Of a DNA stretch of 64,000 nt, positions 11,013 to 40,172 are shown in pieces. A program made the translations under genes and the position numbers. The notes below the pieces were generated by a model that ran no database searches, was not told the origin of the DNA, and saw nothing but the letters and a program-made list of their open reading frames with translations. Position 1 is the stretch's first letter, and each line of letters begins with the position of its first letter. This DNA is from Escherichia phage vB_EcoM_E9.1, in sequence record PP886230; one strand, given 5' to 3'.

Positions 11013-11024
11013 ACTATTGACAAT

Positions 11025-11601: not shown

Positions 11602-11664
11602 AAAGTATTGACAGTACTGAAAGATAGTGTATAATGTTTTATATCTTAACTGAGGATAGTAATC

Positions 11665-12021
11665 ATGGGAATACAACATATCACGCGTACTACTGACAAT
11701 GGCGAGATCACTGGCTATCAAGTACAGGGCAAAGTAGCACAATTGCAGTACTGGTTTGTGAAACGTGGAATCATTGCACCGGATCTTGATTATGACCGTG
11801 TAGCGTTTATTGATTCTCTTTATGTTGATCCTGATAGTCGGGGCAATGGTGAAGGTAACGAATTAATGAATGCCTTTATTGATGCCGCCGATGATTCAGA
11901 TTGTATCATTTTAGAATGCGATACGGGAGAAGATAACGCCTTTAATCTTAAAGAATGGTACGAAGGTTTCGGATTCGAGGTACTGATCGATAGTGAATAT
12001 CCTATCATGATTTTATCATAG
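11665..12021 (+). CDS. putative GNAT-like acetyltransferase (small)
   Basis: VDPDSRGNGEGNELM resembles GNAT motif A and EWYEGFGFEV motif B; assignment tentative. Confidence 0.5.
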   Translation: MGIQHITRTTDNGEITGYQVQGKVAQLQYWFVKRGIIAPDLDYDRVAFIDSLYVDPDSRGNGEGNELMNAFIDAADDSDCIILECDTGEDNAFNLKEWYEGFGFEVLIDSEYPIMILS

Positions 12022-12099
12022 TACTTGCATTTAGTTTTCAGTACTGTTATAGTACTTGCATCAAGGGGAAACATCTTCCCCTACTAAGAGGAAATAAAA

Positions 12100-12288
12100 A
12101 TGGAAAACTTATCAAGTATTTTAGTACAAGATGATTTCGGTAATCCTGGAAGTGCTATCATTGTTCGGGGTAATAAAGCAACGTTTGTTATTGCTGGTGG
12201 ACCAGTACAGCGTAGCATTAAAAATAATGCTGTTACCATTAATAATGTACGCTATCGCTTAGATAAAGAATTGATTCATAAACTGTAA
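12100..12288 (+). CDS. hypothetical protein
   Basis: ORF 62 aa with promoter and hairpin. Confidence 0.6.
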   Translation: MENLSSILVQDDFGNPGSAIIVRGNKATFVIAGGPVQRSIKNNAVTINNVRYRLDKELIHKL

Positions 12289-12315
12289 TATTAATTTAAT
12301 AGAGGATAACAATAA

Positions 12316-12639
12316 ATGTACATTCATACTACTATCACAAAGGAAGTCCGTTGCCAGTTCGAAAGTATTCCGGGCGTATGTTTCATCACTGGTACGTTTT
12401 CCCCTGGTGATCGTGATAATCCAGTACTGTTACAATTACGCCATCCATCATGGGATAAAGCATTTGATCTACCGTTGAATGAATTCGCAACTACTGCTGA
12501 AAAGTACATTAAAAATATTCGCGAGAATGATCGACTATTCATTAATGCTTTTAGTGATTCCGCGTTAAGCGAGATCCACGGCGTATTGGTTGCAATCATG
12601 GAATCAATGCAGAAAACTAAATTCAAACAAGGTGAATAA
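12316..12639 (+). CDS. hypothetical protein
   Basis: ORF 107 aa; SD gagga. Confidence 0.65.
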   Translation: MYIHTTITKEVRCQFESIPGVCFITGTFSPGDRDNPVLLQLRHPSWDKAFDLPLNEFATTAEKYIKNIRENDRLFINAFSDSALSEIHGVLVAIMESMQKTKFKQGE

Positions 12640-12722
12640 AAACTATTGACAATGCAACCCAGTACTGTATAATAGTTTACATGAAGGGGAGAAATGATTC
12701 TCCCCACTGAGAGGAAAGAAAA

Positions 12723-12935
12723 ATGCAAGGTCAACTAATCGTTCGTAAATGGTCTGATACTAACGAAAAACCGTGGGATGTACAATACATCGGACCGGAT
12801 GGGGTATCACGTTATCAGCCTGGCGTAACGCATAGTACTGAGCAATATGCCGCCGCTCACCGCGAACGCCTGTTAGAATCCATGAAACAGGGATTCTGTG
12901 AAAAATTCATTCAAGATCATTGGCTGAAAGATTAA
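12723..12935 (+). CDS. hypothetical protein
   Basis: ORF 70 aa with promoter and hairpin. Confidence 0.65.
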   Translation: MQGQLIVRKWSDTNEKPWDVQYIGPDGVSRYQPGVTHSTEQYAAAHRERLLESMKQGFCEKFIQDHWLKD

Positions 12936-12952
12936 TAGAAGGAGTACAGCTT

Positions 12953-13045
12953 ATGCAAATGAATCCGATGATTATTGTTTTAGCTGTACTTATGATCATT
13001 CATGCAATTGTAGAAGTATTAACGCAATCAGGAGTAATAAAATGA
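12953..13045 (+). CDS. putative small membrane peptide (30 aa)
   Basis: SD aaggagt; hydrophobic; first of three overlapping micro-ORFs. Confidence 0.4.
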   Translation: MQMNPMIIVLAVLMIIHAIVEVLTQSGVIK

Positions 13046-13215
13046 TTCAAGTAGAATTATCAGTACTGAAAGATCTGTTTTATCGGTTAGGTACTACTGG
13101 AGAGTATCCTAAAAGTGATACCGCAAAACTTTTTGTATCACTCGACTTATGGCAACGCGAACAATTAGTAATGTCCTGGCGTAAAGGTAAAGCAGATCGC
13201 GAGGTGAAAGCATGA
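13042..13215 (+). CDS. hypothetical small protein (57 aa)
   Basis: ATGA overlap with upstream stop. Confidence 0.4.
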   Translation: MIQVELSVLKDLFYRLGTTGEYPKSDTAKLFVSLDLWQREQLVMSWRKGKADREVKA

Positions 13216-13361
13216 AAGAATTCTTATTCGAAGTAGTGTTTCAAGGTGTCGGTAGTAACCAACTGATTCGCTCAAGTGGTTACAATGTTAACCAGGCATG
13301 GAATAACATTAAACAAATGTACCCGAACGCTATCACCTATCGCAACCCGAAAGAAGTTTAA
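13212..13361 (+). CDS. hypothetical small protein (49 aa)
   Basis: ATGA overlap with upstream stop. Confidence 0.4.
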   Translation: MKEFLFEVVFQGVGSNQLIRSSGYNVNQAWNNIKQMYPNAITYRNPKEV

Positions 13362-13371
13362 AAATATTTGA

Positions 13372-13452
13372 AAAAGGGATTGACTCCGGTCAGTCCCTTT
13401 GCTATTATATACGCATAGAAACAATTCAGCCCACCGGGTGCATAAATGTATC
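13372..13452 (+). repeat. promoter-containing repeat element (REP copy)
   Basis: gggattgactccggtcagtccc..ctattatat then ..cagcccaccgggtgcataaatgtatc; Chi GCTGGTGG at 13451-13458. Confidence 0.6.
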
Positions 13453-13531
13453 TATTATATGCTGGTGGCTAGTACTGAAAACTATTTTTAAAAAGTACTT
13501 GCATTGTATTTAGAATCAAGTATAATGTTTT

Positions 13532-13612
13532 ACATCAGGACGGGGAACGAAACAAGTAACCCCGTTAAGTAGTCCAGGAGTAAGACATACGAAAACCTCC
13601 CCTGATAAAATA
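13532..13612 (+). ncRNA. candidate small RNA (copy 2)
   Basis: Near-identical to 3378-3460; substitutions look compatible with the proposed stems; sits between two promoters. Confidence 0.35.
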
Positions 13613-13674
13613 GTTTGACAATAGAAATTAAACGAGTATAATACTTACATCAACCACTGATAAGGAAACATAAA

Positions 13675-13950
13675 ATGCGGATTCTACTGACAGCTAACGA
13701 AATCGAACAAGTACTGACTACTAACCTGGAAGACTGGAAACGTGAAGCAGATATCCAGGCGGTTCAATGGTTAAATGATAAGTTAACGCCGGATGACTTA
13801 AGCAAGATTGTAGATCCTCAATTCTACGAAGATATCCACGACACCGCGTTAAGCGTCGAGGATGTACTAGATAAGCACTTTATTGATACTGATTTGCAGG
13901 TTTACGGTCGTAAAAACTTTATCACTATTCACGACATTTACAATAATTAA
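13675..13950 (+). CDS. hypothetical protein
   Basis: ORF 91 aa. Confidence 0.65.
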   Translation: MRILLTANEIEQVLTTNLEDWKREADIQAVQWLNDKLTPDDLSKIVDPQFYEDIHDTALSVEDVLDKHFIDTDLQVYGRKNFITIHDIYNN

Positions 13951-14037
13951 GTATTGACAAAGTATCTTAGTACTGTATAATAGTTTACATCAAGCGAGGG
14001 GAATGGTTCCCCTCCTAACTAAAAGAGAGAAATAAAA

Positions 14038-14220
14038 ATGGCTAAGTGCACTATCTGCAAGAAAGAAATAGTATTAGTTCCAAGTGCCCGTGAACGTGCC
14101 GCTCGGTTCGGTGGCAAAGCGTCAGACTATACAAAAATGTTTACTACCCATACAGCTTGCCAGGTAGCAAAACGTTCACAAGAAAGCGTAGAATTAATGC
14201 GTAAACTTTCCAAAAAATAA
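14038..14220 (+). CDS. hypothetical basic protein
   Basis: ORF 60 aa with promoter and hairpin. Confidence 0.6.
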   Translation: MAKCTICKKEIVLVPSARERAARFGGKASDYTKMFTTHTACQVAKRSQESVELMRKLSKK

Positions 14221-14308
14221 GTATTGACAAAGTATCTTAGTACTGTATAATAGTTTACATCAAGTGAGGGGAAACGGTTCCCCTCCTAACAAAGAGAGAG
14301 AAATAAAA

Positions 14309-14632
14309 ATGGCTATGATCCTTGCCCAGAAAGTAGAATTGAAAATTGTAACCTCCTTTGACATTAACGTTAATCGGTGGACTGATTCACACGGCAATAC
14401 TTACCACTCTTGCTACGTGTCTGCGTTAATTGGCGACCGCTGGGAAGACCTGGGACACGAAACCTTTACATACGGTTACGGTACACAAGGCGAATACACG
14501 GGCTTGGAGATCATTAAAGAAACCGTTATAGGTTTCAACCCGAAAGAAAAAGTTATTCACCGCATCGAGGAAGAGATCAACAAAGAAATAACAGTTCGCT
14601 ACCACGATGTAAAACGTAAGAAAGACATGTAA
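14309..14632 (+). CDS. hypothetical protein, paralogue of 7425-7769
   Basis: ATG after leader hairpin; shared DVKRKKD C-terminus. Confidence 0.7.
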   Translation: MAMILAQKVELKIVTSFDINVNRWTDSHGNTYHSCYVSALIGDRWEDLGHETFTYGYGTQGEYTGLEIIKETVIGFNPKEKVIHRIEEEINKEITVRYHDVKRKKDM

Positions 14633-14727
14633 TAGAATCCATTTAAAGTACTATTTGACATTGCCCAGATAGTACTTTATAATAGACTCTAACTTGTAGT
14701 ACTAACTTAACTAATAGGATGTATACC

Positions 14728-15123
14728 ATGATTACTAAATTCTACGCTACCCGTGAAGCTGCCCGTATTGTTGCACGCGAGGAAGGCGAAACATTTAAAG
14801 ACATGGGCAAAGATGCACCGAAAGGTCAACGCTGGGCCGTACAGTTCAAAGAGATCTCTGATATTGTGAATTCACCGGAGCCAGTACTAACAGCAGCAGA
14901 ACTAAAACGAGCGGATTTACTGGCGTCAATACTTGATGCACAAGATGAGTTTATCGCTGATTCTGATATCAAAGTACAGACAAACCACACCGCTTGGACT
15001 CACGCGGATCACCTGGCAAACCTTAAGCGTCCAAGTGAACTGATTCGCAACCAGAAAGAGATCCGACACGACCGTAAGGGTAATCGTGTAACAGTATACA
15101 GTAAACGCCGCCAGGTTATCTAA
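14728..15123 (+). CDS. hypothetical protein, paralogue of 2511-2777
   Basis: SD agga 8 nt upstream of ATG 14728; shared FKDMG and DRKGNRVTVY. Confidence 0.7.
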   Translation: MITKFYATREAARIVAREEGETFKDMGKDAPKGQRWAVQFKEISDIVNSPEPVLTAAELKRADLLASILDAQDEFIADSDIKVQTNHTAWTHADHLANLKRPSELIRNQKEIRHDRKGNRVTVYSKRRQVI

Positions 15124-15145
15124 TAACTTGCAGTACTAACAACAC

Positions 15146-15171
15146 GGCGGGATCAGTTCCCGCCTTTTTTA
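15146..15171 (+). terminator. rho-independent terminator
   Basis: Hairpin ggcgggatcagttcccgcc then TTTTTT. Confidence 0.7.
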
Positions 15172-15184
15172 TAGGACAAACAAA

Positions 15185-15439
15185 ATGATTAAGGTTCAAC
15201 TATATAAAGATAACATCTTACGGGTACACTATAAAGCACCTCAGAGAATCATCACAAAGGCCGTACAGCTTGCTAATGAGTTTATTAATGGTAACCTATT
15301 ACCAAGGAAGTTAAGCAACGGGAAACTGCGTGTAATCGATGTGGACACTAACAACAGAATAGTAATAGAGAACACAGGAAAAATAAACCTATATGAACAC
15401 CAACAATATAATAAGAAAATAAAACTAATATCACGTTGA
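15185..15439 (+). CDS. hypothetical protein
   Basis: ORF 84 aa. Confidence 0.55.
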   Translation: MIKVQLYKDNILRVHYKAPQRIITKAVQLANEFINGNLLPRKLSNGKLRVIDVDTNNRIVIENTGKINLYEHQQYNKKIKLISR

Positions 15440-15492
15440 CAGTACTCAAATGTTTTAGTACTATATGTACATACCAACACGGGGGAAACAAA

Positions 15493-15735
15493 ATGATTAC
15501 TTTAGAAAAACGTATCAAAGAAACTACATCGCTGGTGGAACTGTTAACAGTACTCAAATGTAAAACAACACCATTCAGCACGCCGGACTTTATTAATATG
15601 GTTGATGTTAATGGTCGCTATCGTATCACGGTCGAACAAGGAGCGGCGAAAGTATTCAGTACTAAAAACACGAAGGAAGTGATCCACGCCGTTAATGTTA
15701 AAAAAGTAGTTGCCATTGATAGTAAAGTACTGTAA
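15493..15735 (+). CDS. hypothetical protein
   Basis: ATG after gggggaaacaaa; the track ORF starts upstream at 15436. Confidence 0.55.
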   Translation: MITLEKRIKETTSLVELLTVLKCKTTPFSTPDFINMVDVNGRYRITVEQGAAKVFSTKNTKEVIHAVNVKKVVAIDSKVL

Positions 15736-15766
15736 GATAGTTACATTAACTCAAGGAGAACATGCA

Positions 15767-16351
15767 ATGCGTAATTATACTAAATTCATCCGTACACTGT
15801 CAGAAATGGAAACCAACAAAGAGATCCTTTCAGCTTGTCGGTTAGCTGGCCTGGAGATCATCGGTGCTGGTTCTTCCCGTATAGTATTCGCTTTAAATGA
15901 TCGGTTAGTGATTAAGGTCGCGAATTGTGATGCGGGTGTAGAACAAAATGAAACTGAATGTAAGGTATGGAATTTTTTAGACTATGACCGCCCTCAGTTG
16001 AAACAGTACTTTGCAAAGGTGCATATGCATTTATGCGATCCTGATAATATGTTTATCGTTATGGATCGGTTGAGTACTGCAAGCAAAGGCAGCGTAAAGC
16101 ACGTTAACGCGTGCAACGAATTAAAGTATAATATTAAACGTAATGCCATTGAACGCCAGCACCGCTTTGCTGATGCACTACAACACGTTGATGATACATT
16201 ATCAACACTAACGATAAGAGATATCAGAAAACAGAATATCGGCCAGGATCGTAATGGACTTATTAAAGTACTTGATTACGGTTTAACCCGCAATATCTGG
16301 AATCAGTACTATAAAAAGCGTGATGTAGAAGCAAGTAAGGTAACACGATAA
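15767..16351 (+). CDS. minimal protein-kinase-like protein (putative Ser/Thr kinase)
   Basis: Gly-rich loop IGAGSSRIVF, VIKV lysine, IRDIRKQNIG resembling HRDLKPENI, and DYG in place of DFG; SD aaggaga 6 nt upstream. Confidence 0.55.
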   Translation: MRNYTKFIRTLSEMETNKEILSACRLAGLEIIGAGSSRIVFALNDRLVIKVANCDAGVEQNETECKVWNFLDYDRPQLKQYFAKVHMHLCDPDNMFIVMDRLSTASKGSVKHVNACNELKYNIKRNAIERQHRFADALQHVDDTLSTLTIRDIRKQNIGQDRNGLIKVLDYGLTRNIWNQYYKKRDVEASKVTR

Positions 16352-16360
16352 AAAAAGATT

Positions 16361-16465
16361 AAAAAAGGGATTGACTCCGGTCAGTCCCTTTGCTATTATA
16401 TATTCATTGAGAGATAACTCACTGACCCATAGGGTGCGGAAGTGTATCTATTATATAAGTATTCA
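16361..16465 (+). repeat. promoter-containing repeat element (REP copy)
   Basis: gggattgactccggtcagtccc..ctattatat then ..cactgacccatagggtgcggaagtgtatc. Confidence 0.6.
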
Positions 16466-16573
16466 GTACTGAAAACTATTTTTAAAAAGTACTTGCATTG
16501 TACTTAGAATCAAGTATAATGTTTTATATCGAGAGGGGAAATGGTTCTCCCTCAAAGAACAAGGAATAAAATC

Positions 16574-16795
16574 ATGACTACAATGACTTGCATTCACGCT
16601 TCAAACCTGCTTAATGATGCGGCCTTTAATGTTGAAACAGAATATCAATGTTATCGGGATGAAAATAAAAAAGTTTTTGTAGTTGATAATAATGGTTTCC
16701 ATATTGAATTGCAATCCGGCTTCACTGGCGTTGATGGTAAATCAGTATGGGGCGTACAGGATGATAAAGGCACATATCATTTTAAACGTAATTAA
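16574..16795 (+). CDS. hypothetical protein
   Basis: ATG after SD aaggaat; the track ORF from 16541 starts in the leader hairpin. Confidence 0.65.
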   Translation: MTTMTCIHASNLLNDAAFNVETEYQCYRDENKKVFVVDNNGFHIELQSGFTGVDGKSVWGVQDDKGTYHFKRN

Positions 16796-19275: not shown

Positions 19276-19677
19276 ATGACCTTCTCAATCAATTCCTTCG
19301 CTGACGTTTTAGTACTGGCCCGGACTTTTGGTAAAGATGCACTGGAGTACGCTGTAAGTAATGGCACTATCCAACCGGAACAGTGCCGCATCATTGGAAA
19401 CTGCAAACGTTGGGCGGTATCCAATACTATTGCACTGGAAAACTTCCACGATGGCAACAATGAATATTCTGTTGATGTAGTATTCGAAGCCGTTGATCTC
19501 GGCGGTATCTATAATACTAACCTGAATGATGTGCGTATCGTTCGCACGGGGTTCGGTGCTTATGATGTATCTATCCGTGAAGCTATGAACACCGGATACA
19601 TTAGCAAGGACTTACTTGCTCACATCATGCAGCTGTGTACGGAACGTAACGAAGCACGTACTATCTTAGGGCTGTAA
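19276..19677 (+). CDS. hypothetical protein
   Basis: ATG after SD taaggagt; the track ORF from 19213 starts in the promoter. Confidence 0.7.
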   Translation: MTFSINSFADVLVLARTFGKDALEYAVSNGTIQPEQCRIIGNCKRWAVSNTIALENFHDGNNEYSVDVVFEAVDLGGIYNTNLNDVRIVRTGFGAYDVSIREAMNTGYISKDLLAHIMQLCTERNEARTILGL

Positions 19678-19745
19678 GCAATACACATCACCAAACATCA
19701 TAGGCCGCTCTCTAGCGGCCTTAACTATATCAGGAGTACATACAT

Positions 19746-19955
19746 ATGTTCTATACAGTATACAGCGTTCTAGGCACTATTGCAGGCGTACATGATAACG
19801 TCAATGATGCTATGCGTACAGTACTGCAACAGGTTCCACTAAAGCCTAAGACCATTAAGCAGATGACAGCACGACTAACCAGGGCGACGGCTGGCGTGGA
19901 AGTATGGCAGGACTATGGGGATACACAGATAATCGTAAGCGTAACGAAGGATTAA
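19746..19955 (+). CDS. hypothetical protein
   Basis: ORF 69 aa, SD caggagt. Confidence 0.6.
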   Translation: MFYTVYSVLGTIAGVHDNVNDAMRTVLQQVPLKPKTIKQMTARLTRATAGVEVWQDYGDTQIIVSVTKD

Positions 19956-19959
19956 TGCG

Positions 19960-20200
19960 TAAAGGGATTTAGTACTGATTCAGAAAAAAGTCAAGGCGTT
20001 TTTAAAATTATGCGTTAAAAAAATGCATAGGTAATCCCTTGACTTTTTTGAAATAAAAGGGATTGGACTATGGCAAAATGCGTAGGGGGCTAAAGGGCGG
20101 GTAACCTTAGCGACTTCGATAAAGGGGTATTACGAATAAAATGTTATTGATTTTTTATACGAATCGTATATTATAGGATTGATATTATTTTTAATGGAGT
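19960..20200. promoter_or_regulatory. non-coding junction with inverted repeats (aaaaagtcaagg / ccttgactttttt; aaagggatt x3) at the transition to AT-rich DNA
   Basis: Inverted repeats read directly; base composition changes here. Confidence 0.45.
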
Positions 20201-20204
20201 CCCT

Positions 20205-20402
20205 ATGCGTATTTTAACTAAAGAACAGCACCACGAAAGACTTATCAATAACATGGCTATGATAATGTATAAGTCCCATGACCATGGTATTGCCTATAAG
20301 CGTGAATTAATTATGGCACTATTCATTGGAACTAACTTTCAGGAAAGGTATGTCAACGATTGGATTTGGTATTTAATTGAAGATATAACGAGTAAACTAT
20401 GA
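20205..20402 (+). CDS. family A paralogue (about 70 aa, LGTNYQE-type motif)
   Basis: Motif FIGTNFQERYV. Confidence 0.65.
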   Translation: MRILTKEQHHERLINNMAMIMYKSHDHGIAYKRELIMALFIGTNFQERYVNDWIWYLIEDITSKL

Positions 20403-20599
20403 AAATGCGTATTTTAAATAAAGAAGAATATCAATCACTGTTACGTAAAAACTTCACAAAGATTTATAATACAGACACACACGTAGAACGAATGGAGTTA
20501 TACCTTTTGATTACTTTGGGAACTAACTATCAGGAAAGATGGGTGATTCAATATATGGATACATTGAAAAATAAAATATTGTCCACGAGGAAACAATGA
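20399..20599 (+). CDS. family A paralogue
   Basis: ATGA overlap; motif TLGTNYQERWV. Confidence 0.65.
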   Translation: MKMRILNKEEYQSLLRKNFTKIYNTDTHVERMELYLLITLGTNYQERWVIQYMDTLKNKILSTRKQ

Positions 20600-20805
20600 A
20601 AACTATAACACGAACCCAATCATACGGTCTTATCTTGAAATACATGGACTTAATGGTGGATATCAGCAAAGACCTTCCTAAAACTGAAATTGAAGTTGCA
20701 AGAGCAGAGATCCGCATGTTGGCTGTACTGAACACAAACCATCAGGAAGAGTATGTTGACGATTGGATTCGATTTTTAATAGAAGATATTAAGAGTAAAC
20801 TATGA
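20596..20805 (+). CDS. family A paralogue
   Basis: ATGA overlap; motif VLNTNHQEEYV. Confidence 0.65.
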   Translation: MKTITRTQSYGLILKYMDLMVDISKDLPKTEIEVARAEIRMLAVLNTNHQEEYVDDWIRFLIEDIKSKL

Positions 20806-21017
20806 TTATTATAGAAAACTCATATCAATATACTGAACGCATCGCTGCCAGACAACTTGAAATCCTCATAATATACGAAGAGACTTCTGATTTAAACTTA
20901 GCCGAGGTATTGGAAAATGATATACTATTGGGTGCATTCTTAGGAACAGACTATCAGAAGTATTATGAGGAAAAGTATTTGTCATCTCTTGAGAAATATA
21001 TCAGGAGCAAATTATGA
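20802..21017 (+). CDS. family A paralogue
   Basis: ATGA overlap; motif FLGTDYQKYYE. Confidence 0.65.
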   Translation: MIIIENSYQYTERIAARQLEILIIYEETSDLNLAEVLENDILLGAFLGTDYQKYYEEKYLSSLEKYIRSKL

Positions 21018-21226
21018 TTTTTTTAACACCAGAAGAATATAAGAAACGTTTCAATTCCGCACAGGGTGAAATCTTACTTATATACCTTTCAAATGCAGAC
21101 CTTAACTTATCAAGGGTATTAGAAAAAGATTTACTTATGGGTGCATTCCTTGATACAGACTTTCAGGTGTATTATGTAGGGGAATACTTAATTGCACTTC
21201 AGAATTATATCAGGAGTAAACTATGA
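21014..21226 (+). CDS. family A paralogue
   Basis: ATGA overlap; motif FLDTDFQVYYV. Confidence 0.65.
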   Translation: MIFLTPEEYKKRFNSAQGEILLIYLSNADLNLSRVLEKDLLMGAFLDTDFQVYYVGEYLIALQNYIRSKL

Positions 21227-21441
21227 AACATTTAAGTAATTACGAGAAGAATAAAATTATCGTTGCTGCAATAAACAAATATTTTACACTTCCTCACACA
21301 GAAGGTTTATGTGTAAGGGAACACAGGATAAACACCACCGATATACGCATGATGGCTGTACTGGGGACGAACTTTCAGGAAGAGTATGTTGTTGCACACA
21401 TAGTTGCCCTCACTGATCTAATAAGGGACAAATGTAAATGA
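21223..21441 (+). CDS. family A paralogue
   Basis: ATGA overlap; motif VLGTNFQEEYV. Confidence 0.65.
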   Translation: MKHLSNYEKNKIIVAAINKYFTLPHTEGLCVREHRINTTDIRMMAVLGTNFQEEYVVAHIVALTDLIRDKCK

Positions 21442-21695
21442 AACACTTAACTGATGATGAATTTGAAACTATAATTCGTAAACTAACCCCCATCACAAGG
21501 ATAGTCTACGGTGACCCCAGCCTTACATGGAACCAAATGCGAGCTAAAGTTAATGAGCTATGGTTGCTGTACTTTATGGGGACTCAATATCAAGATAAGT
21601 TTTGCACAGAATATATCGAACAATTAACGAATGTTATACAGGATAAACTAGATGATTATTTGCTCACAAAACATGAAGACTTTATCAGGAGTTGA
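21438..21695 (+). CDS. family A paralogue with C-terminal read-through
   Basis: Motif FMGTQYQDKF; the usual KL-stop/ATGA junction is disrupted near 21645. Confidence 0.6.
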   Translation: MKHLTDDEFETIIRKLTPITRIVYGDPSLTWNQMRAKVNELWLLYFMGTQYQDKFCTEYIEQLTNVIQDKLDDYLLTKHEDFIRS

Positions 21696-21924
21696 GTATC
21701 AAACTGCCCTATTCTCTTTAATCCATACCCTTAGAAAAAACAATGCCTTACATGGTGCACCTGAAGTGGATGTTATCAACGGTGAACTTTATCTTATGAA
21801 ATTCATTGGAACAAACTATCAAGATCTGTTCATTCAACGATACTTATCCGCATTAAGAAACCAAATCCAATATAAAACCATCAAGGCCAAAAAAGAATGG
21901 AATAAACAATGCGACAAAGACTAA
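21652..21924 (+). CDS. family A paralogue (start uncertain, 21652 or 21673)
   Basis: Motif FIGTNYQDLFI. Confidence 0.6.
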   Translation: MIICSQNMKTLSGVEYQTALFSLIHTLRKNNALHGAPEVDVINGELYLMKFIGTNYQDLFIQRYLSALRNQIQYKTIKAKKEWNKQCDKD

Positions 21925-22160
21925 ATCACAAAATGTATTGTAAACTATTGCAGACACTGGCACAGAAACACTATGACACTGTATCTGAAATATTACCCTA
22001 TGATATCATGCGTTTAATTCATAGTGAGGCAGAGATGCTTGTACTGATGACAGGCACTGATAAAAAAGCAATTGCCAAATCAATAGATATGTTCATCGAA
22101 GCACAATGTCAACACATTAGAACCGAGATATGGAGACGAGAGAATGATAACACTAAATGA
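21909..22160 (+). CDS. family A paralogue (divergent)
   Basis: Degenerate motif LMTGTDKKAI at the usual position. Confidence 0.5.
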   Translation: MRQRLNHKMYCKLLQTLAQKHYDTVSEILPYDIMRLIHSEAEMLVLMTGTDKKAIAKSIDMFIEAQCQHIRTEIWRRENDNTK

Positions 22161-22359
22161 GTTTCAGTATCATTGGAGGTTACAAACTATCAAATCAAAA
22201 GTGTATAGTATTGTGTTAAACAAATCTATTGCACAAGAGGACAAATGTGTTATAATAGCTGAAATGAAGTTGGGTGCTTTCGTAGGGACAAACTATCAAA
22301 ACATCTACACTGACGTATTGTTAAGTGCCTTACGTAACAAGGTGGTATCCAAAATATGA
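22144..22359 (+). CDS. family A paralogue
   Basis: Motif FVGTNYQNIY. Confidence 0.65.
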   Translation: MITLNEFQYHWRLQTIKSKVYSIVLNKSIAQEDKCVIIAEMKLGAFVGTNYQNIYTDVLLSALRNKVVSKI

Positions 22360-22574
22360 GAAATTTACAAGGCTTTGAATACATCAGACTCCTGAAAACA
22401 TGCACCAGCAGAAGGAAAATCTTATCAAGCGATAAGAGCATCCAAGCTAACTTTAAGCACGCACTAGTAACTGAACTCTATGTAGGTGCACTCTTAGGCA
22501 CAAATTATCAACAAATGTATGTAGATCTATGGATTGACGCTCTACAGAAAGAGGTTAAAAGTAAATGCAAATGA
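22356..22574 (+). CDS. family A paralogue
   Basis: ATGA overlap; motif LLGTNYQQMYV. Confidence 0.65.
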   Translation: MRNLQGFEYIRLLKTCTSRRKILSSDKSIQANFKHALVTELYVGALLGTNYQQMYVDLWIDALQKEVKSKCK

Positions 22575-22783
22575 TTAATTTAAGTAAAGACGAATTTTAT
22601 GTTATACTGGCGAAAACTTATCCAGCACGTAAGGCCGTTTATGATAGTCACATTATTGAACCCTCAAAGAAGTTGATTTTAGTAAATGAGATAAAGATGC
22701 TTTCAGTCTTAGGAACAAACTATCAAGAGAATGCTGTACTGATGTTAATTGATGCCCTCCAGCGAGAGGTTAAACGTAAATGA
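22565..22783 (+). CDS. family A paralogue
   Basis: Motif VLGTNYQENAV. Confidence 0.65.
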   Translation: MQMINLSKDEFYVILAKTYPARKAVYDSHIIEPSKKLILVNEIKMLSVLGTNYQENAVLMLIDALQREVKRK

Positions 22784-23010
22784 AAATGATTAATTTAACT
22801 TACCATGAATATCAAAAACGTTTAAATGCATCCAGAGATATAAGGATTCAAATATTCAATAACAAAAGATTGAAGCCTGATATCAGGAAAATCAAAATCA
22901 TAGAAGCCGTGTTGTGCAACTTCCTAGGGACTAACTATCAGGAAGGTAAGGTAGAAAACTATCTTATAGAACTCATGAATAGTATTGAAAATAAATGTAA
23001 GGGTAATTAA
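22780..23010 (+). CDS. family A paralogue
   Basis: ATGA overlap; motif FLGTNYQEGKV; C-terminus runs into the duplicated 38-bp segment. Confidence 0.65.
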   Translation: MKMINLTYHEYQKRLNASRDIRIQIFNNKRLKPDIRKIKIIEAVLCNFLGTNYQEGKVENYLIELMNSIENKCKGN

Positions 23011-23011
23011 C

Positions 23012-23251
23012 ATGAAAATGATTAAATTATCTCAAGCAAAATATAAAGAACGCCTGGTAAAAATTGCACCTGGACTTAATGAAATCCATCACGGAGAAGT
23101 CATTAAACACGGAAATAAGATGATTATGAAACTTGAGTTAAAGGTGGGTGCATTCATAGGAACAAACTATCAGGAGTATTATGTAGATGAATACATAATC
23201 GCACTTAAGAGATACATTGGAAGAAAACTATATCTACAAACTAAAGAATAG
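23012..23251 (+). CDS. family A paralogue
   Basis: ATG start MKMIKLSQ (track ORF begins at TTG 22985); motif FIGTNYQEYYV. Confidence 0.6.
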   Translation: MKMIKLSQAKYKERLVKIAPGLNEIHHGEVIKHGNKMIMKLELKVGAFIGTNYQEYYVDEYIIALKRYIGRKLYLQTKE

Positions 23252-23280
23252 TATTGAAAATAAATGTAAGGGTAATTAAC

Positions 23281-23544
23281 ATGCAAATGATCAATTTAAG
23301 TAAAGATGAATATACCGAGCGTATGACAAAAATTACGCACAAACGTAATACAATCTATCACAACCCAGAAATTCAACACAGTAAGAAAATGATTATGATG
23401 CGTGAGTTAAAGATGGGTGTATTCTTAGGAACAAACTATCAAGATACAGAAGTAAATCGCTTAATCGCGGAGTTACTACTGGAAATCAGAGGTAAGCTGT
23501 ACTTTCATCAAATGACCCAACCACTGAGGTGTACTAAGAAATGA
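23281..23544 (+). CDS. family A paralogue
   Basis: ATG start MQMINLSK (track ORF begins at TTG 23254); motif FLGTNYQDTEV. Confidence 0.6.
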   Translation: MQMINLSKDEYTERMTKITHKRNTIYHNPEIQHSKKMIMMRELKMGVFLGTNYQDTEVNRLIAELLLEIRGKLYFHQMTQPLRCTKK

Positions 23545-23756
23545 TCAACATCACATTGCAAGAAAGATTCATCCGAATCAACTATGCAATTACCAAATTA
23601 GATGCTACTATAGGATTCCAAAGTCTACCATACAAAACCAGATTGTTATTAGAGTGTGAAGCTAAGTTGGGTGTACTATTAGGGACGCAACACCAACAAC
23701 GATATGTGGAAATCTGGATTGATCTTTTAACCCAGGATGTACATGAGAGAATGTAA
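23541..23756 (+). CDS. family A paralogue
   Basis: ATGA overlap; motif LLGTQHQQRYV. Confidence 0.65.
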   Translation: MINITLQERFIRINYAITKLDATIGFQSLPYKTRLLLECEAKLGVLLGTQHQQRYVEIWIDLLTQDVHERM

Positions 23757-24011
23757 ATGCAAAATGAAATGATATACTTAACCTATAATGAATACGTCGA
23801 GAGATTAGTTCGTGCCAAGAGATATACCAATAAACGTCCAATTGACCTAAACCAAACCCCTGCCGAAAGGAGTGCAGAAGTTTTATTCCAATCACTACCA
23901 TACCTTCTTGGAACTGATAGACAAGAGGAATATGTTGCACGTATGATTAGATATCTTAAAATCACTATTAAGGAAAAAGTAAATGCAAATGAAATACTTA
24001 ACAGACGATGA
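23757..24011 (+). CDS. family A paralogue
   Basis: Motif LLGTDRQEEYV. Confidence 0.65.
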   Translation: MQNEMIYLTYNEYVERLVRAKRYTNKRPIDLNQTPAERSAEVLFQSLPYLLGTDRQEEYVARMIRYLKITIKEKVNANEILNRR

Positions 24012-24234
24012 GTTAAAAGAACGACTAATTAAATCCAGAAAACTTACAAATCAACTTCCAAACGACACAAACAAGTCACATGCCGAAAGGAGTGCAGAAG
24101 TTTTATACATTCAACTCATGTACTTTCTTGGCACTGACAGACAAGAGTATTACATTGAAAGTATGCTTCGATATCTTAAATTCTCTATAAAGGAAAAGAT
24201 ACATGCTCAAGAATTTAAAAATCCTAACAGTTAA
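23983..24234 (+). CDS. family A paralogue
   Basis: Motif FLGTDRQEYYI; close paralogue of the previous gene (shared SHAERSAEVL). Confidence 0.65.
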   Translation: MQMKYLTDDELKERLIKSRKLTNQLPNDTNKSHAERSAEVLYIQLMYFLGTDRQEYYIESMLRYLKFSIKEKIHAQEFKNPNS

Positions 24235-24445
24235 TGAATATCATACGATTGTAATGAAAACTAATAGTGCAATTTCTAAAAAATCAAACCCAAAGTACAT
24301 ACTGGAACACACATTCGAAGAACGTCAATTAGCTTTAGTTGAAGCAAAACTTCTTGCACTCCTAGGAACAAACTATCAAGAAGAATACATCAGAAAACTA
24401 ATATACCTTTTAACTAAACATATAAGAAAAAGAAAAAATGCATGA
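24203..24445 (+). CDS. family A paralogue
   Basis: Motif LLGTNYQEEYI. Confidence 0.65.
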   Translation: MLKNLKILTVNEYHTIVMKTNSAISKKSNPKYILEHTFEERQLALVEAKLLALLGTNYQEEYIRKLIYLLTKHIRKRKNA

Positions 24446-24672
24446 AACACTTGACAGATGATGAACATGGGCTTATAGTAATGGATGTAATCAACATCGA
24501 ATACAAAAAGTTGATACGCTACCGTTGTTATGAAGATAAGCAACTCGTTCTAGCAGAACAGAAGTTGTTTCGACTCTTAAACACAAACTACCAAGCACAA
24601 TACGAAGAATCGTATATGTACCTTTTGGCGAGGAAAGCAAAAAGAGATTATGAAAATTTTAAGCGAAGGTGA
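24442..24672 (+). CDS. family A paralogue
   Basis: ATGA overlap; motif LLNTNYQAQYE. Confidence 0.65.
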   Translation: MKHLTDDEHGLIVMDVINIEYKKLIRYRCYEDKQLVLAEQKLFRLLNTNYQAQYEESYMYLLARKAKRDYENFKRR

Positions 24673-24865
24673 TTCAGTAATATTACTTATAGAGAATGCA
24701 AGTAAATTCTTAAACATAACACTGTCTGATATAGATGATGATGACAAAGAAGTACTTAGAGCCGATTTAAGAGTTCTTTTATATGTTGGAACTAACTTAC
24801 AAGAGCAATACATTGAGGACTACATCAATGAACTTAAAGAATCAGTACTGAGAAAATGCAAATGA
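24650..24865 (+). CDS. family A paralogue
   Basis: Motif YVGTNLQEQYI. Confidence 0.65.
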   Translation: MKILSEGDSVILLIENASKFLNITLSDIDDDDKEVLRADLRVLLYVGTNLQEQYIEDYINELKESVLRKCK

Positions 24866-25095
24866 AAATCATTACAGAAGAAGAATACCTAACAATCATA
24901 AATGGACTGTTTTTGAAGTTATTTGCCATTAACACATCAAAACTACCAGATACTGATAAAATCATTAAGTTAAATGAAATCTACGTTCAAGCTACTCTAG
25001 GAACTAACTATCAAGAAGCCAATGTGTATAATTACATTAATACACTCAAAAGGGTAATACAATTAAAATGCACAAACATATACACAAACCCCTAG
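24856..25095 (+). CDS. family A paralogue
   Basis: Motif TLGTNYQEANV. Confidence 0.65.
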   Translation: MQMKIITEEEYLTIINGLFLKLFAINTSKLPDTDKIIKLNEIYVQATLGTNYQEANVYNYINTLKRVIQLKCTNIYTNP

Positions 25096-25295
25096 GAACA
25101 GCAGAATACATTGAACTCATGGGATTACACTTCTCATCCTTTAAGAAACTGATGCAAGAATCAAATAATGATTTAGAATATCACATCAAAAGTTCAGATT
25201 TAAGATTGCTACTCACTCTAGGAACAGATTCCCAAGAGCGATTTGTCAATGAGCATATTAGAGCACTTTTAAATGGCATCAGGAATAAACTATGA
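25068..25295 (+). CDS. family A paralogue
   Basis: Motif TLGTDSQERFV. Confidence 0.65.
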   Translation: MHKHIHKPLGTAEYIELMGLHFSSFKKLMQESNNDLEYHIKSSDLRLLLTLGTDSQERFVNEHIRALLNGIRNKL

Positions 25296-25507
25296 AGGAA
25301 ATATCAAATCAAGAGTACTTGGCACTATTCAGGAAGAATAATCACAAATATATGGCACTTGATTCAAGAACTGATATAAGTGAACTTGAAAAAAATCTTT
25401 TGCGTTCAGATATGATAGTACTGACACTCTTAGGAACACAGCATCAAGAGAGAACTGTTAATTCACACATAGGGATTCTTATGCAGATAGTACAGGAAAA
25501 GATATGA
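25292..25507 (+). CDS. family A paralogue
   Basis: ATGA overlap; motif LLGTQHQERTV. Confidence 0.65.
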   Translation: MKEISNQEYLALFRKNNHKYMALDSRTDISELEKNLLRSDMIVLTLLGTQHQERTVNSHIGILMQIVQEKI

Positions 25508-25725
25508 TAATCATAACACAACAAGATATTCTTAAGTTCACAAGGGTTCATGCATCTGAATTTGATGCTATATTATCAAAAAGTTACAACAACCCTTATA
25601 CACAAGATGTACATTACAGTGAATTATGGATGTATATACTTTTAGGTACAAATAAACAAGAGCAAGCAGTACAGAAGTATTTGACAGCTTTACGTGATGC
25701 TACTGCTAATGGAGTACATGTTTAA
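25504..25725 (+). CDS. family A paralogue
   Basis: ATGA overlap; motif LLGTNKQEQAV. Confidence 0.65.
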   Translation: MIIITQQDILKFTRVHASEFDAILSKSYNNPYTQDVHYSELWMYILLGTNKQEQAVQKYLTALRDATANGVHV

Positions 25726-25726
25726 T

Positions 25727-25969
25727 ATGAAAGTACTGACAGAACTAGAAATGTATCATAGATTTAATAAGTACTATCATTTACTTAAGCCTATACAGAG
25801 GATTAAATGTCCATTTGAAGAGAAACAGGTTTTAATCTATGAGCACAAGTTCTTTGTATCATTAGGTACAGATCAACAAGAGTACTATTTGACGTTGTAC
25901 TTGATTACATTAATAGATTTAATTCACTATAAAACAAAACAAGCTAATAAAGAGAAATATGAAAACTAA
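25727..25969 (+). CDS. family A paralogue
   Basis: Motif SLGTDQQEYYL; ATG at 25727 chosen (track ORF from 25694). Confidence 0.6.
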   Translation: MKVLTELEMYHRFNKYYHLLKPIQRIKCPFEEKQVLIYEHKFFVSLGTDQQEYYLTLYLITLIDLIHYKTKQANKEKYEN

Positions 25970-26303
25970 TATACAACTCAAGGTATATAAATCATTTGAA
26001 CATACATATATCAAAAGTAGTCTATGTAGAGATGTAATGGATTACAAGGGTAAGCCATTCACAATTACCTATGATTCTTATGTTAGTGATTTATATATAT
26101 CATTTGTTAATTACGAAAATAAAATATACAAGCACGTTGATATTAAAGATTTAAGTACTTTATCTGAAGAGGAATACTTTCAGGAATCATTAGTATGGGA
26201 TTTAGAGTTTCCTATGCCATTAGTACATAAGATGATAGTACTAATGAAAGAATCTAAACAGGAGCCTAATGGTGATTATGAAGAACACACAGTTGAGTAT
26301 TAA
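25959..26303 (+). CDS. family B paralogue (EEYYFQ-S-L-V-D motif family)
   Basis: Motif EEEYFQESLVWD. Confidence 0.65.
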   Translation: MKTNIQLKVYKSFEHTYIKSSLCRDVMDYKGKPFTITYDSYVSDLYISFVNYENKIYKHVDIKDLSTLSEEEYFQESLVWDLEFPMPLVHKMIVLMKESKQEPNGDYEEHTVEY

Positions 26304-26673
26304 AAGTACTGATAATATTAAGAGTTATACAAGCTCAAGTACTGTGACAATCGAAGTGAATTCTCTTAATGCTGGTAATACAGTAGATAAGTTCTTTATT
26401 GCTCAAGGGTACAGGAAAGATATTCATCAATATTGTTCAGTATATGGGGAGTACAATAGTACTGAAGATATAATTTATTGGTCAACACATCAAGATTATC
26501 TAACTAAAATTGGCGTTCCAGATGTTAGTACTTTATCTGAAGAAGAATACTTTCAGTACAGCTTAGTACATGATTTACCTATACCTTTAGGGTTAATCAA
26601 GGGTATACAGGAAGAGGTTCATAAGCTTAAATCCATGAGTAAAGGTACTTTCATTAGAACAGTGCAATACTAG
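26269..26673 (+). CDS. family B paralogue
   Basis: Motif EEEYFQYSLVHD. Confidence 0.65.
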   Translation: MVIMKNTQLSIKSTDNIKSYTSSSTVTIEVNSLNAGNTVDKFFIAQGYRKDIHQYCSVYGEYNSTEDIIYWSTHQDYLTKIGVPDVSTLSEEEYFQYSLVHDLPIPLGLIKGIQEEVHKLKSMSKGTFIRTVQY

Positions 26674-26732
26674 CTTGACAGTACTTTTCATTACTGATAT
26701 AGTACACTAACGTTAATCATAGGGTAAAAATT

Positions 26733-26978
26733 ATGTTAAATTTTTTAAATTTTCTTATCGTCTTGTGTATTGTTCTTGGGATTGCACCATTTGTATTGTA
26801 TTTCATGGATTCAGATGAAATGCAGAAGATGAATTGCACAAGGACAGGACAGAGTAGAGTAGAGACGATTCTTATGCCTGTTACGGTTATTGTTAACAAC
26901 ATGCCCATTACGAACATGGTCCCTACCCTAACGACAACGTACCAGTACTCTTGTACAGACGGAGAGAGGTGGAGATGA
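26733..26978 (+). CDS. putative small membrane protein
   Basis: ORF 81 aa with hydrophobic N-terminal segment; preferred over the overlapping minus-strand ORF. Confidence 0.4.
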   Translation: MLNFLNFLIVLCIVLGIAPFVLYFMDSDEMQKMNCTRTGQSRVETILMPVTVIVNNMPITNMVPTLTTTYQYSCTDGERWR

Positions 26979-27295
26979 AATTTAATATAGCAAAAACATC
27001 GAGTATATGTATTTTTGGTTATGCAGAAGAGTTAGGTGATATTGACATTCTTTTGTACAAAAAGGATGGTGTTATGCATTTCAAGTACCAGGATGAAGAG
27101 GCAGACAATTATCTTTTACCTAATTTAGTACAAATGCAGGAAGAGGAATTATTCCAGTACAGCTTAATATACGACATTGATATTTGCACGATGCCAGTAC
27201 TAATTAGTATTCAAAAAGTGATGCTCGATATGTATGATAAGCTAATACAAGGTACATCAGGGAGAATCATTGAAATCGATATACAAGACAATTAA
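26975..27295 (+). CDS. family B paralogue
   Basis: Motif EEELFQYSLIYD; ATG at 26975 after SD ggag. Confidence 0.6.
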   Translation: MKFNIAKTSSICIFGYAEELGDIDILLYKKDGVMHFKYQDEEADNYLLPNLVQMQEEELFQYSLIYDIDICTMPVLISIQKVMLDMYDKLIQGTSGRIIEIDIQDN

Positions 27296-27488
27296 TCAAG
27301 AATGGAAGACCCAAAAGTACAGGGAATTCAACAGGAATTTTACAAAAGATGCATTGAATTTAAAAACAACAGAGTTTGATATGTTTATTTTTCTTGGAAC
27401 ACGTTCACAAGAACAATTTGTTCATTATTATATAAATTCGTTGCGAACGGAGATAGTATGCAAAACACAGGGTATTATAAAAAGGTAA
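27270..27488 (+). CDS. family A paralogue (satellite copy)
   Basis: Motif FLGTRSQEQFV. Confidence 0.6.
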   Translation: MKSIYKTINQEWKTQKYREFNRNFTKDALNLKTTEFDMFIFLGTRSQEQFVHYYINSLRTEIVCKTQGIIKR

Positions 27489-27724
27489 ACCAATATTTGT
27501 ACGCTACAAAGTACAGGGATTTTTGTTTAAAGGGTGGTGATGAAGATTTTTCTTTGCGATTATCAGAATTTAATCTGTTATTTTATCTTGGTACAAAAGA
27601 ACAAGAAGAAATGGCACAGAAATTTATCAAGCACCTTGTACAAAAAATTAATATGCAAATTTTGATGCTTAAGATACAGAATGAGATAAATGAATATGAA
27701 TCCAGAAATAGTTCAGGATCTTAA
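27458..27724 (+). CDS. family A paralogue (satellite copy)
   Basis: Motif YLGTKEQEEMA. Confidence 0.6.
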   Translation: MQNTGYYKKVNQYLYATKYRDFCLKGGDEDFSLRLSEFNLLFYLGTKEQEEMAQKFIKHLVQKINMQILMLKIQNEINEYESRNSSGS

Positions 27725-28082
27725 AAAAGTAATATTTCTTTTGAATACCAGAAGTGAATTGTATACAGAGTTAAAAGAGATTAATGCATTTTATCAGAAT
27801 TTTGTAATCCAAGAGATCAGTGATTTAATTACAGATGCATTATTTGAATTATCGGAGAAATACAAAGGTTCAGAGTTCAGTGTTAAGAATGTTATTCGTC
27901 CAAGTGCAAGGAAAATTATATTATCACATTTTACATTTGACAATAAAGATTTATTCAGTCATAATCCAAGTACAGCTTTATATTTTATTCCTGATTCAGA
28001 CAAAAATCATCCTATTCATTACGGATGGATTTTGTCATATATAGTACAAGGAAAGGAGTATCCTATTAAATGGAAAGATTAG
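27690..28082 (+). CDS. hypothetical protein
   Basis: ORF 130 aa, neither family motif. Confidence 0.55.
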   Translation: MNMNPEIVQDLKKVIFLLNTRSELYTELKEINAFYQNFVIQEISDLITDALFELSEKYKGSEFSVKNVIRPSARKIILSHFTFDNKDLFSHNPSTALYFIPDSDKNHPIHYGWILSYIVQGKEYPIKWKD

Positions 28083-28230
28083 GGCGATTAGATTATTACA
28101 CAATTAATACAAATTATTTGTTGCGTAATATAAAATCCGATTACAAAATATGGATAAAGAACAGAGATAGCATGTGTTATGAATTTTATTTAGATTATGC
28201 TATCAAACGATTTTTAAGAGAAGAACATTA

Positions 28231-28434
28231 ATGCAAAAGATTAATACGATAACATTAAATGCATTACAGGATTCATTATTAGATAGTATTAAGATGTATT
28301 ACAATATACATTTGAAGGGTGGTATTGATAATTACGATTATTATTTGAGTTTAATTACATTTGAGCACCTTTCAGTACAGGACAGGATTTTACATCCTAC
28401 AAATCCTAGGTATCCATCGATAGGTAAATTATGA
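28231..28434 (+). CDS. hypothetical protein
   Basis: ORF 67 aa. Confidence 0.5.
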   Translation: MQKINTITLNALQDSLLDSIKMYYNIHLKGGIDNYDYYLSLITFEHLSVQDRILHPTNPRYPSIGKL

Positions 28435-28979
28435 ATGAGATAGAGTTATTAGCACACAAGATAAGTACAATAATGCTTATCCTCAATAACAACCATCCTA
28501 TATCGCATATAGATGGAATCCTGAGTCAGAGGACAGGTGGTAGTTTATATTTGTCCATAAACGCAGATATCGCAAGGAAATACATTGATATCGATGTTGA
28601 AATCGAATATGATACAACGGGGATTGTTGATGTAGGTGCATTAATCAGTTCAAATCCAGTATCAGCATCCCCATTGACCAAAGATGTTAGTACAGGATTC
28701 GAAGGATATTTGTGGTACAATACCAATGATGATTATTTTATATATCAGCATTCCAATACAAATTATGATGAAGACAAATTTCAGTTCATAGACCCTTATG
28801 ATGAAGCTGGCGTATTCCAACAATCATTAATCACAAAACCGCATGAGATGATGTATCTAATGTTATTCAGTACAATGCATTTGAATTCATTAATTAAAGG
28901 TTTAAAATTTTATATTCAATTAAATTTAGTCCATGTAGTTTATGATTTATTAATGCAAGGATATAGTTATGAAGTATAA
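28431..28979 (+). CDS. family B paralogue (divergent)
   Basis: Motif EAGVFQQSLI; ATGA overlap. Confidence 0.6.
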   Translation: MNEIELLAHKISTIMLILNNNHPISHIDGILSQRTGGSLYLSINADIARKYIDIDVEIEYDTTGIVDVGALISSNPVSASPLTKDVSTGFEGYLWYNTNDDYFIYQHSNTNYDEDKFQFIDPYDEAGVFQQSLITKPHEMMYLMLFSTMHLNSLIKGLKFYIQLNLVHVVYDLLMQGYSYEV

Positions 28980-34590: not shown

Positions 34591-34788
34591 AGACGTTTCG
34601 TTTTGACAGGCCGCAGGGGGGGGTCAAAAAAATTTCCGCTGAAAAACATGCTAAGGTATATGTTTAATATAAAGTTTTATATTGTGTTTTTCAGAGTACA
34701 GTTCATGTTTCTTGAAACAAAAAATACCCCGCCGCCGAACGTTCTCCTTATATTGGAGTTTACCTTATTAATTATAGTAGAGATTAAG

Positions 34789-39807: not shown

Positions 39808-40003
39808 TCGAATTGAATACATGAGAACTGTGAGTGCAGTGTGGGACATATGGTTCACTACTAAACCAAAAATGGATTACCATGACTTTAAGCTCTTGTT
39901 CTTCGTTGGCTCTAACAAACAGGATGTTGCAATGAAGGGTTATATTCAGCACTTACAGGAACTAATCCAGAAGAGAATATATGAAAATAATAGACCAAAA
40001 TGA
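39785..40003 (+). CDS. family A paralogue (satellite copy)
   Basis: Motif FVGSNKQDVAM. Confidence 0.55.
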   Translation: MKYSKTFNRIEYMRTVSAVWDIWFTTKPKMDYHDFKLLFFVGSNKQDVAMKGYIQHLQELIQKRIYENNRPK

Positions 40004-40172
40004 CATTGCTAAACTATTCAATATATATTCTACTAGAATGATGCAAACCGACTCATATAGTACTGAATTCAAAGAGTTGAAAGTCCTGATGTACTTGGGA
40101 ACCCAATATCAGGAACAAGTTATTTTGGAATATATTAATTCGCTGAAGAAGGATATCCGTTATGTACGATGA
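39981..40172 (+). CDS. family A paralogue (satellite copy)
   Basis: Motif YLGTQYQEQVI. Confidence 0.6.
   Translation: MKIIDQNDIAKLFNIYSTRMMQTDSYSTEFKELKVLMYLGTQYQEQVILEYINSLKKDIRYVR

Follow-up and report, generated by a model that had tools for sequence, protein, structure and literature searches.

The question raised by this locus is why a 38-bp sequence occurs twice, without a mismatch, on both sides of one small gene, and whether it marks a place at which neighboring genes have recombined. The window examined here is a stretch of 64,000 nt from Escherichia phage vB_EcoM_E9.1 (PP886230). An earlier sequence-only reading of it took the repeat, together with an apparently broken gene junction near position 21645, for scars of recombination between repeats.

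Genomic context of the locus

A megablast comparison of window positions 20000–26000 with public records gave 33 matches from the Asteriusvirus group at 85–98% identity, and the 1.2 kb around the repeat was 99.9% identical to phage PBECO4. By homology, the window is assigned to the left end of an Asteriusvirus jumbo coliphage genome (PBECO4/121Q/phAPEC6 group). Positions 1–16580 align to fEgEco12 1–15614 and to vB_Ec-M-J 1–16143. Restriction digests have confirmed the ends of the fEgEco12 genome, the direct terminal repeats (DTR) of which measure 20,993 bp (PMC13070987); the annotated DTR of vB_Ec-M-J is 21,525 bp. In both phages the first gene of the array described below lies 98–99 bp past the DTR end. 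The alignment to the starts of these two genomes and the DTR offset together indicate that the window starts at the left genome end and that the array is the first unique block behind the DTR, which by homology would end approximately near position 20107, ~98 bp before array gene A. The GC content falls stepwise from ~0.39 in the DTR to 0.34 in the array and 0.31 downstream. A non-coding 250 nt (19956–20204), reported as lying between the inferred DTR end and gene A, contains a promoter-like TTGATT-16-TATTAT (20147–20174) and a GGAG before the ATG, and might hold a candidate promoter for a polycistronic array transcript. An Rfam scan of 19500–28500 returned only a sub-threshold bglG-like match (19931–20067; 26.5 vs. 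80 bits), which is outside the array and probably due to chance.

The array and the related genes were localized as follows:

20205..25969, + strand: tandem array of 26 consecutive ORFs of 65–90 aa, lettered A–Y, with an LGTNYQE core common to the members
27270–27488 and 27458–27724, + strand: two divergent family members, with another paralog family lying between them and the main array
39981..40172, + strand: isolated family member of 63 aa (phrog_4148, E = 1e-16), 14 kb 3' of the array

Clustering by BLASTP grouped 24 of the 26 array ORFs together, and the mean column identity among the paralogs was 28%. All eight array proteins that were tested, M, N and O included, matched the phrog_4148 profile over their full length (E about 1e-16 to 1e-26); phrog_4148 carries no functional annotation. 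A Pfam search of the array proteins gave sub-threshold noise only, a PDB sequence search gave no match for the family, and a fold search of BFVD retrieved only the family itself and no informative fold. A word-indexed search of 5.8 billion clusters yielded 97 family matches and an exhaustive search of 1.84 billion proteins yielded 88 family representatives, all of them small proteins; every match with a named source came from an Asteriusvirus-type phage or from an E. coli assembly with ~350-kb contigs. The best family profile score (E = 7e-30) belonged to a 154-aa protein on an ENA metagenome contig of 3,149 bp, the length of which suggests a fusion of two family units into a single ORF, as would be expected if a junction stop were lost. 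Since dN/dS values of orthologous array pairs were mostly 0.1–0.6, the array ORFs are considered to be real genes under purifying selection.

The array is already on record in 121Q, where it was read as a product of tandem duplication (Hua et al., 2017, mBio; PMC5646251); the sequence-only reading had not recognized the region as this known paralog array of a jumbo phage. The 121Q array occupies the same locus as that of the window, with genes 319 to ~341 as collinear orthologs of genes A–Y, and has a single 38-mer and no gene N. The order of the orthogroups was conserved in 14 genomes, while array size among relatives ranged from 20 to 28 genes, with whole-gene indels or replacements at several other positions. 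Only about half of the array genes are annotated in the PBECO4, UB and UE-S1 records, or truncated ORFs are called, and the PBECO4 record has 3 CDS across a stretch with 7 conserved ORFs; owing to this uneven annotation, gene counts of these phages are not comparable between records.

Beyond the array, BLASTP grouped genes on its 3' side, partly in tandem, into no fewer than three additional paralog families of 8, 8 and 3 members, and multigene families without assigned function make up much of this genome end:

25959–26673, 34648–35878, 41323–42010 and 49112–49693: further paralog family (BLASTP)
35888–39274, 43087–43581 and 44306–44797: further paralog family (BLASTP)
60822–62231: further paralog family (BLASTP)

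Within the array, 22 of the 25 gene junctions overlap, 12 through a 4-nt ATGA and 10 by 10–44 nt; only M–N (+1 nt), N–O (+29 nt) and P–Q1 (0 nt) do not. The description of a "usual KL-stop/ATGA junction" made earlier was borne out for the ATGA overlap to the extent of these 12 junctions, but not for the KL-stop, which was found at only five of the 25, all within the ATGA set.

The 38-bp repeat is a gene-to-gene junction

The repeat, GAATAGTATTGAAAATAAATGTAAGGGTAATTAACATG, has two exact copies in the 64-kb window, 269 bp apart and both on the + strand. The features needed to describe it are:

22780..23010, + strand: gene M, 76 aa, phrog_4148 member, from whose 3' end the 38-mer sequence derives
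22977..23014, + strand: copy 1 of the 38-mer (junction j1), in which the closing 11 codons and TAA of gene M are separated by one base from the ATG of gene N
23012..23251, + strand: gene N, 79 aa, chimeric paralog and variable cassette
23219..23245, + strand: diverged remnant resembling the tail of M, 18/27 identical to 22950–22976, immediately 5' of copy 2
23246..23283, + strand: copy 2 of the 38-mer (junction j2), comprising the last codon and TAG of gene N, a 29-nt spacer, and the ATG of gene O
23281..23544, + strand: gene O, 87 aa, phrog_4148 member, directly 3' of M in genomes lacking N

The two copies, claimed from the outset to be a perfect duplication of ~38 bp, proved identical on exact comparison, and self-comparison of the array region established the 38-mer as the longest exact repeat of the array. 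Even with up to three mismatches allowed, no further match was found in the 64-kb window, and none appeared in 100 dinucleotide shuffles. The flanks of the two copies agreed at 18/27 positions upstream and 64/100 downstream; the two units spaced by 269 bp could be aligned without gaps over 226 nt at ~76% identity (~70–76% outside the 38-mer). At a background identity of ~70%, plain arithmetic (0.7^38) puts the chance of a perfect run of 38 nt at ~1e-6. Since the flanks are far less alike and the chance of such a run is so small, a perfect 38-mer is not expected from ordinary paralog similarity or common ancestry alone.

The 38-mer is a gene-to-gene junction, made up of the 3' end of gene M, a ribosome-binding site and the ATG of the next gene. 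Copy 1 is translated in the frame of M (...ATG AAT AGT ATT GAA AAT AAA TGT AAG GGT AAT TAA) to give the protein end ...MNSIENKCKGN*. Copy 2 is read in another frame, in which GAA TAG closes gene N (last codon and stop at 23249–23251), and the 29 untranslated nt that follow are the only real intergenic gap of the array. One copy had thus been correctly described as the C-terminus of a gene; of the two roles offered for the other, the intergenic one agrees with the 29-nt spacer. A TTG start at 23254, which would extend O at its N-terminus, is unlikely because the N-termini of the family align at the ATG. A Shine-Dalgarno-like AAGGG lies within the 38-mer, ~9 nt 5' of the ATG. Stop/start overlaps of the ATGA type are known from translationally coupled gene junctions in phage operons; the array resembles such operons at its ATGA junctions, whereas the 38-mer junctions differ in having gaps of +1 and +29 nt and a Shine-Dalgarno-like motif of their own.

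Gene N is a chimera with an M-like end

Gene N matches the phrog_4148 profile at E = 9e-27 and is a mosaic when each part is assigned to its closest paralog: the head is closest to O (69%), the core and tail to E (78%) and D (72%), and the 3' extension to M (43/45 identical). The normal end of N, ...RYIGRKL, is the usual end of the family; it is followed by AGAAAACTAT in place of the usual ATGA. After this join come 27 nt that resemble the tail of M (18/27), and then the 38-mer. AGAAAACTAT is a 10-nt microhomology between 23222–23231 and 22953–22962, located where the ...RKL end of N meets M-tail sequence. Six codons (YLQTKE) are thereby added to N, out of frame from the copy of the M tail, and in an AF2 model of N (three helices, pLDDT 96.6) this extension is predicted merely to lengthen helix 3. 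When N was compared with an N-like gene of fEgEco12, the homology ended exactly at ...AAACTA.

Cassette N is present in some relatives and absent from others

Related genomes were compared for the presence or absence of the duplicated gene, using 31 distinct public genomes. Gene N was present in 18 and absent from 13, and the indel was exactly 269 bp, equal to the junction-to-junction spacing in every genome that carries N. The genomes were sorted by the state of their junctions:

State (i), N present, both junctions the exact 38-mer: the window and 11 public genomes (PBECO4, SP27, BF17, SD-1/2/6/15, ECO103 4-12-1, EC22.5-2, BAU.Micro_ELP-22 and JP4)
State (ii), N present, copy 2 with four differences within 10 nt (...GTGAGGTTGATGAACATG): phAPEC6, G17, SHEFM2K, slurp01, CRJP21 and Sharanji
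State (iii), N present, both junctions diverged (11 and 6 differences): UE-S1
State (iv), N absent, a single exact 38-mer joining M to O: UB and 121Q
State (v), N absent, other junction variants: TH47, Turkey3, Ecwhy_1, vB_Ec-M-J and fEgEco12
State (v), assigned by length only: WPEC3, WPEC5, CMSTMSU, EC.P1 and ph0011
M and N both absent: A4

A 1,196-bp query from the window spanned ~927 bp in TH47 and Turkey3 and was proportionally shorter in UB, 121Q, Ecwhy_1 and others. The alignment of UB with the window showed a clean 269-bp gap, the placement of which is ambiguous only within the repeat, and 1/197 differences in M and 9/261 in O. An apparent "1272-bp" class (BF17, JP4, slurp01 and EC22.5-2) was rejected as a different arrangement, being instead an offset from the joining of BLAST pieces; genes L through O of BF17 measure 980 bp, as in the window.

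The state (ii) variant is informative as to how the junctions change. Between phAPEC6 and the window, four differences fall within 10 nt of copy 2 and two in the other 727 aligned nt, and the altered patch is identical to the M–O junction of Ecwhy_1 and fEgEco12. Both the clustering of the four differences and the match to this junction indicate replacement of a patch by recombination rather than point mutation. Divergence also changes from segment to segment. UE-S1 differs from the window by 11% in M, 1.7% in N and 0.4% in O, and 121Q by 5% in M and 23% in O; the identity of the array to 121Q ranges from 0.69 to 0.99 per gene. On these comparisons, the 38-mer junction is assigned as a mosaic breakpoint. 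As the divergence is mosaic by segment, one local tree cannot polarize gain versus loss of N.

Origin of the repeat

Taken together, the data argue with good confidence that the 38-mer on both sides of N is the footprint of recombination between paralogous gene junctions in the tandem array, which upholds the reading first given to it: cassette N is polymorphic, the indel equals the spacing, UB and 121Q have a single copy, a 4-nt patch variant exists, and exact junction repeats recur around one-gene units at other places in related arrays. As in direct-repeat recombination, repeats in the same orientation flank N, the N-less UB and 121Q keep one of them, and the gap equals their distance. Phages of the Asteriusvirus group encode a RecA-like recombinase (PMC7247149).

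We propose that O-like and E/D-like paralogs supplied the parts of the chimeric N, and that in its last join the ...RKL end was placed out of frame onto a copy of the M tail at the AGAAAACTAT microhomology. A counterpoint to an origin of N by such a join is that the 27 nt upstream of copy 2 match the tail of M at only 18 positions. The two junction copies would at first have been diverged, as they are in UE-S1. In the PBECO4 lineage, the window included, a short gene conversion or crossover may then have made copy 2 equal to copy 1; its source could have been intragenomic, or an N-less genome of the UB/121Q type crossing over in a shared 22 nt. The resulting 38-bp direct repeats would be substrates for homologous recombination, and deletion of N with one repeat would give the UB-type arrangement. 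UB and 121Q could, as judged from sequence, be ancestral N-less states rather than deletion products.

Among the other explanations weighed, the one least remote, although unlikely, is that selection keeps the 38-mer identical as a cis element, such as an efficient, unstructured site of translation initiation or a weak internal promoter, required at junctions whose upstream gene lacks the usual overlapping ATGA end, with recombination being incidental. The AAGGG ~9 nt upstream of the ATG would suit such a role, as would the location of the 38-mer at two of only three non-overlapping array junctions, RNA folds less structured than those of shuffles (z = +0.7 and +0.9), a promoter-like TTGAAA-17-TAACAT match in each copy, and the exact 38-mer in 121Q despite an O diverged by 23%. 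Six near-identical genomes have, however, a different 3' half of copy 2, and the corresponding junctions of UE-S1, TH47, Turkey3 and Ecwhy_1 have other sequences; this variety among close relatives argues that the exact 38-mer is not required. The identity of the M tail in 121Q is unremarkable since M is only 5% diverged there, promoter-like sites of the region are no more frequent than expected by chance (45 vs. 49 expected), and no Rfam match was obtained in the array at E ≤ 1. A structured RNA was rejected on the lack of an Rfam family in the array and on folds no better than those of shuffles, and a promoter or terminator because consensus matches did not exceed the shuffled expectation. 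Selection on the 38-mer is a possible contributing factor.

If a single 269-bp unit had simply been duplicated in tandem not long ago, with N and O as sisters and the 38-mer as the part not yet diverged, the resemblance of the N head to the O head and the 226-nt alignment at 269-bp spacing would be accounted for. We regard such a duplication as improbable, given that it predicts uniformly high identity and not a 38-nt island, that the units are only ~70–76% identical outside the 38-mer, and that the N tail is closer to E and D than to O; in addition, UE-S1 has N in nearly unchanged form between two junctions that differ from each other like ordinary paralogs. Direct repeats around a segment that is present or absent could also be the target-site duplication of a mobile element or a homing-type event that inserted N. 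This is very improbable: N is an ordinary phrog_4148 array member and not a transposase or endonuclease, terminal inverted repeats are lacking (the best pairs are 10–20 nt, 70–90% complementary and off the cassette ends), and the 38-mer is itself gene-junction sequence homologous to other junctions. Typical target-site duplications are, moreover, far shorter than 38 bp. For a chance match or an assembly artefact nothing speaks beyond the low GC and repetitiveness of the region, and with no match in 100 shuffles and the same arrangement in 11 independently sequenced public genomes, the probability is practically negligible.

Junction repeats elsewhere in related arrays

Recombination between paralogous junctions, the reading preferred here for the 38-mer, can be set beside other exact junction repeats in these arrays. 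In fEgEco12, the N-like gene (locus 3499–3760) lies between K and L, two genes upstream of the M–O slot, and is bracketed by an exact 26-mer, AAATGCAAATGATTAATTTAAGTAAA, at 235-bp spacing; its position between K and L means that the slot filled by this cassette type varies from strain to strain. In A4, gene L is bracketed by an exact junction repeat of 40 nt, and exact junction repeats of 28–31 nt at one-gene spacing surround Q copies in 121Q, UB and phAPEC6. Inside the bodies of the adjacent genes Q1 and Q2 of the window, a 26-nt exact repeat, TGCCGAAAGGAGTGCAGAAGTTTTAT, was observed at 23861–23886 and 24081–24106 (220-bp spacing). Q-type genes number from 1 to 3 copies among relatives.

The junction near position 21645

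The second putative scar concerns genes G and H:

21438..21695, + strand: gene G, with a 14-codon C-terminal extension past ...QDKL, overlapping H by 44 nt
21652–21924, + strand: gene H, downstream of G

The original description of this junction was accurate, in that G has no stop after ...QDKL and runs on for 14 codons. Compared with the usual AAACTATGA, the junction has two additional bases (AAACTA-GA-TGA) that put the stop out of frame. Its interpretation as a recombination scar was not supported. Every one of the 11 relatives with both genes shows the read-through of G and the 44-nt overlap free of indels, over an identity range of 99.6% to 74% (121Q, 74%), and the length of 14 codons and the pattern of the extension are kept across diverged versions (DDYLLTKHEDFIRS, NERIVEKYENFIKL and NESIIAKYKNFIKH). 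The upstream ATG of H is also conserved among relatives. By comparison of these sequences, the G–H junction is judged to be an old, maintained gene end, separate from the 38-mer event. In phAPEC6 (locus 2374–2682) and BF17 (locus 2450–2758), the stop of G is changed from TGA to GGA, giving a G of 102 aa and a much longer overlap with H. Mosaic switches were also observed right at the G–H junction, e.g., in UE-S1 after AAACTA.

Relation to known systems and significance

Unequal or ectopic homologous recombination between short direct repeats in tandem arrays is known from the gene "accordions" of poxviruses and from T4-type hyperplastic regions. The locus described here resembles them in having repeats in the same orientation, gain or loss of whole units, an indel equal to the spacing, one repeat left behind, and copy-number differences among strains. 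Unlike them, its units are old, diverged paralogs and not recent identical copies, and the homology does not extend beyond the gene heads, the junctions and the LGTNYQ core.

The only mention of the array in the literature examined is the single sentence of Hua et al. (2017), which does not cover the junction anatomy, the presence or absence of N among strains, the chimeras or the DTR-adjacent position. A term search of the fEgEco12, Sharanji, CBB and phAPEC6 papers gave no description of the 38-mer junction or of the N cassette. The 38-mer finding is an ordinary consequence of a tandem paralog array known for the genus, and its exact sequence is contained in published genomes. By itself the repeat matters little; it offers a clean, well-documented illustration of a phage acquiring, losing and rebuilding single genes of a tandem paralog array by way of short junction repeats. 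It also accounts for inconsistencies of annotation at this locus in public Asteriusvirus genomes, such as missed genes and differing starts.

A bolder proposal, which we consider doubtful, is that the array is a deliberately plastic arsenal of ~26–30 small three-helix proteins, with heads, junctions and the LGTNYQ core serving as built-in recombination sites. Equally speculative is its corollary that cassettes are shuffled, chimerized, gained and lost between co-infecting phages, the arsenal being aimed at variable host targets or defence systems. If this were true, the array would be a phage counterpart of the poxvirus gene accordions, with the 38-mer as one visible joint; lying directly behind the DTR, its genes would be some of the earliest unique ones to be delivered into the cell. 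The narrow distribution of the family, the confidently predicted three-helix fold, purifying selection, 20–28 strain-variable copies and the DTR-adjacent position fit an early host-takeover or anti-defence set. The role of the phrog_4148 family is a more interesting question than the repeat itself, and the family is a tractable target for deletion and expression screens.
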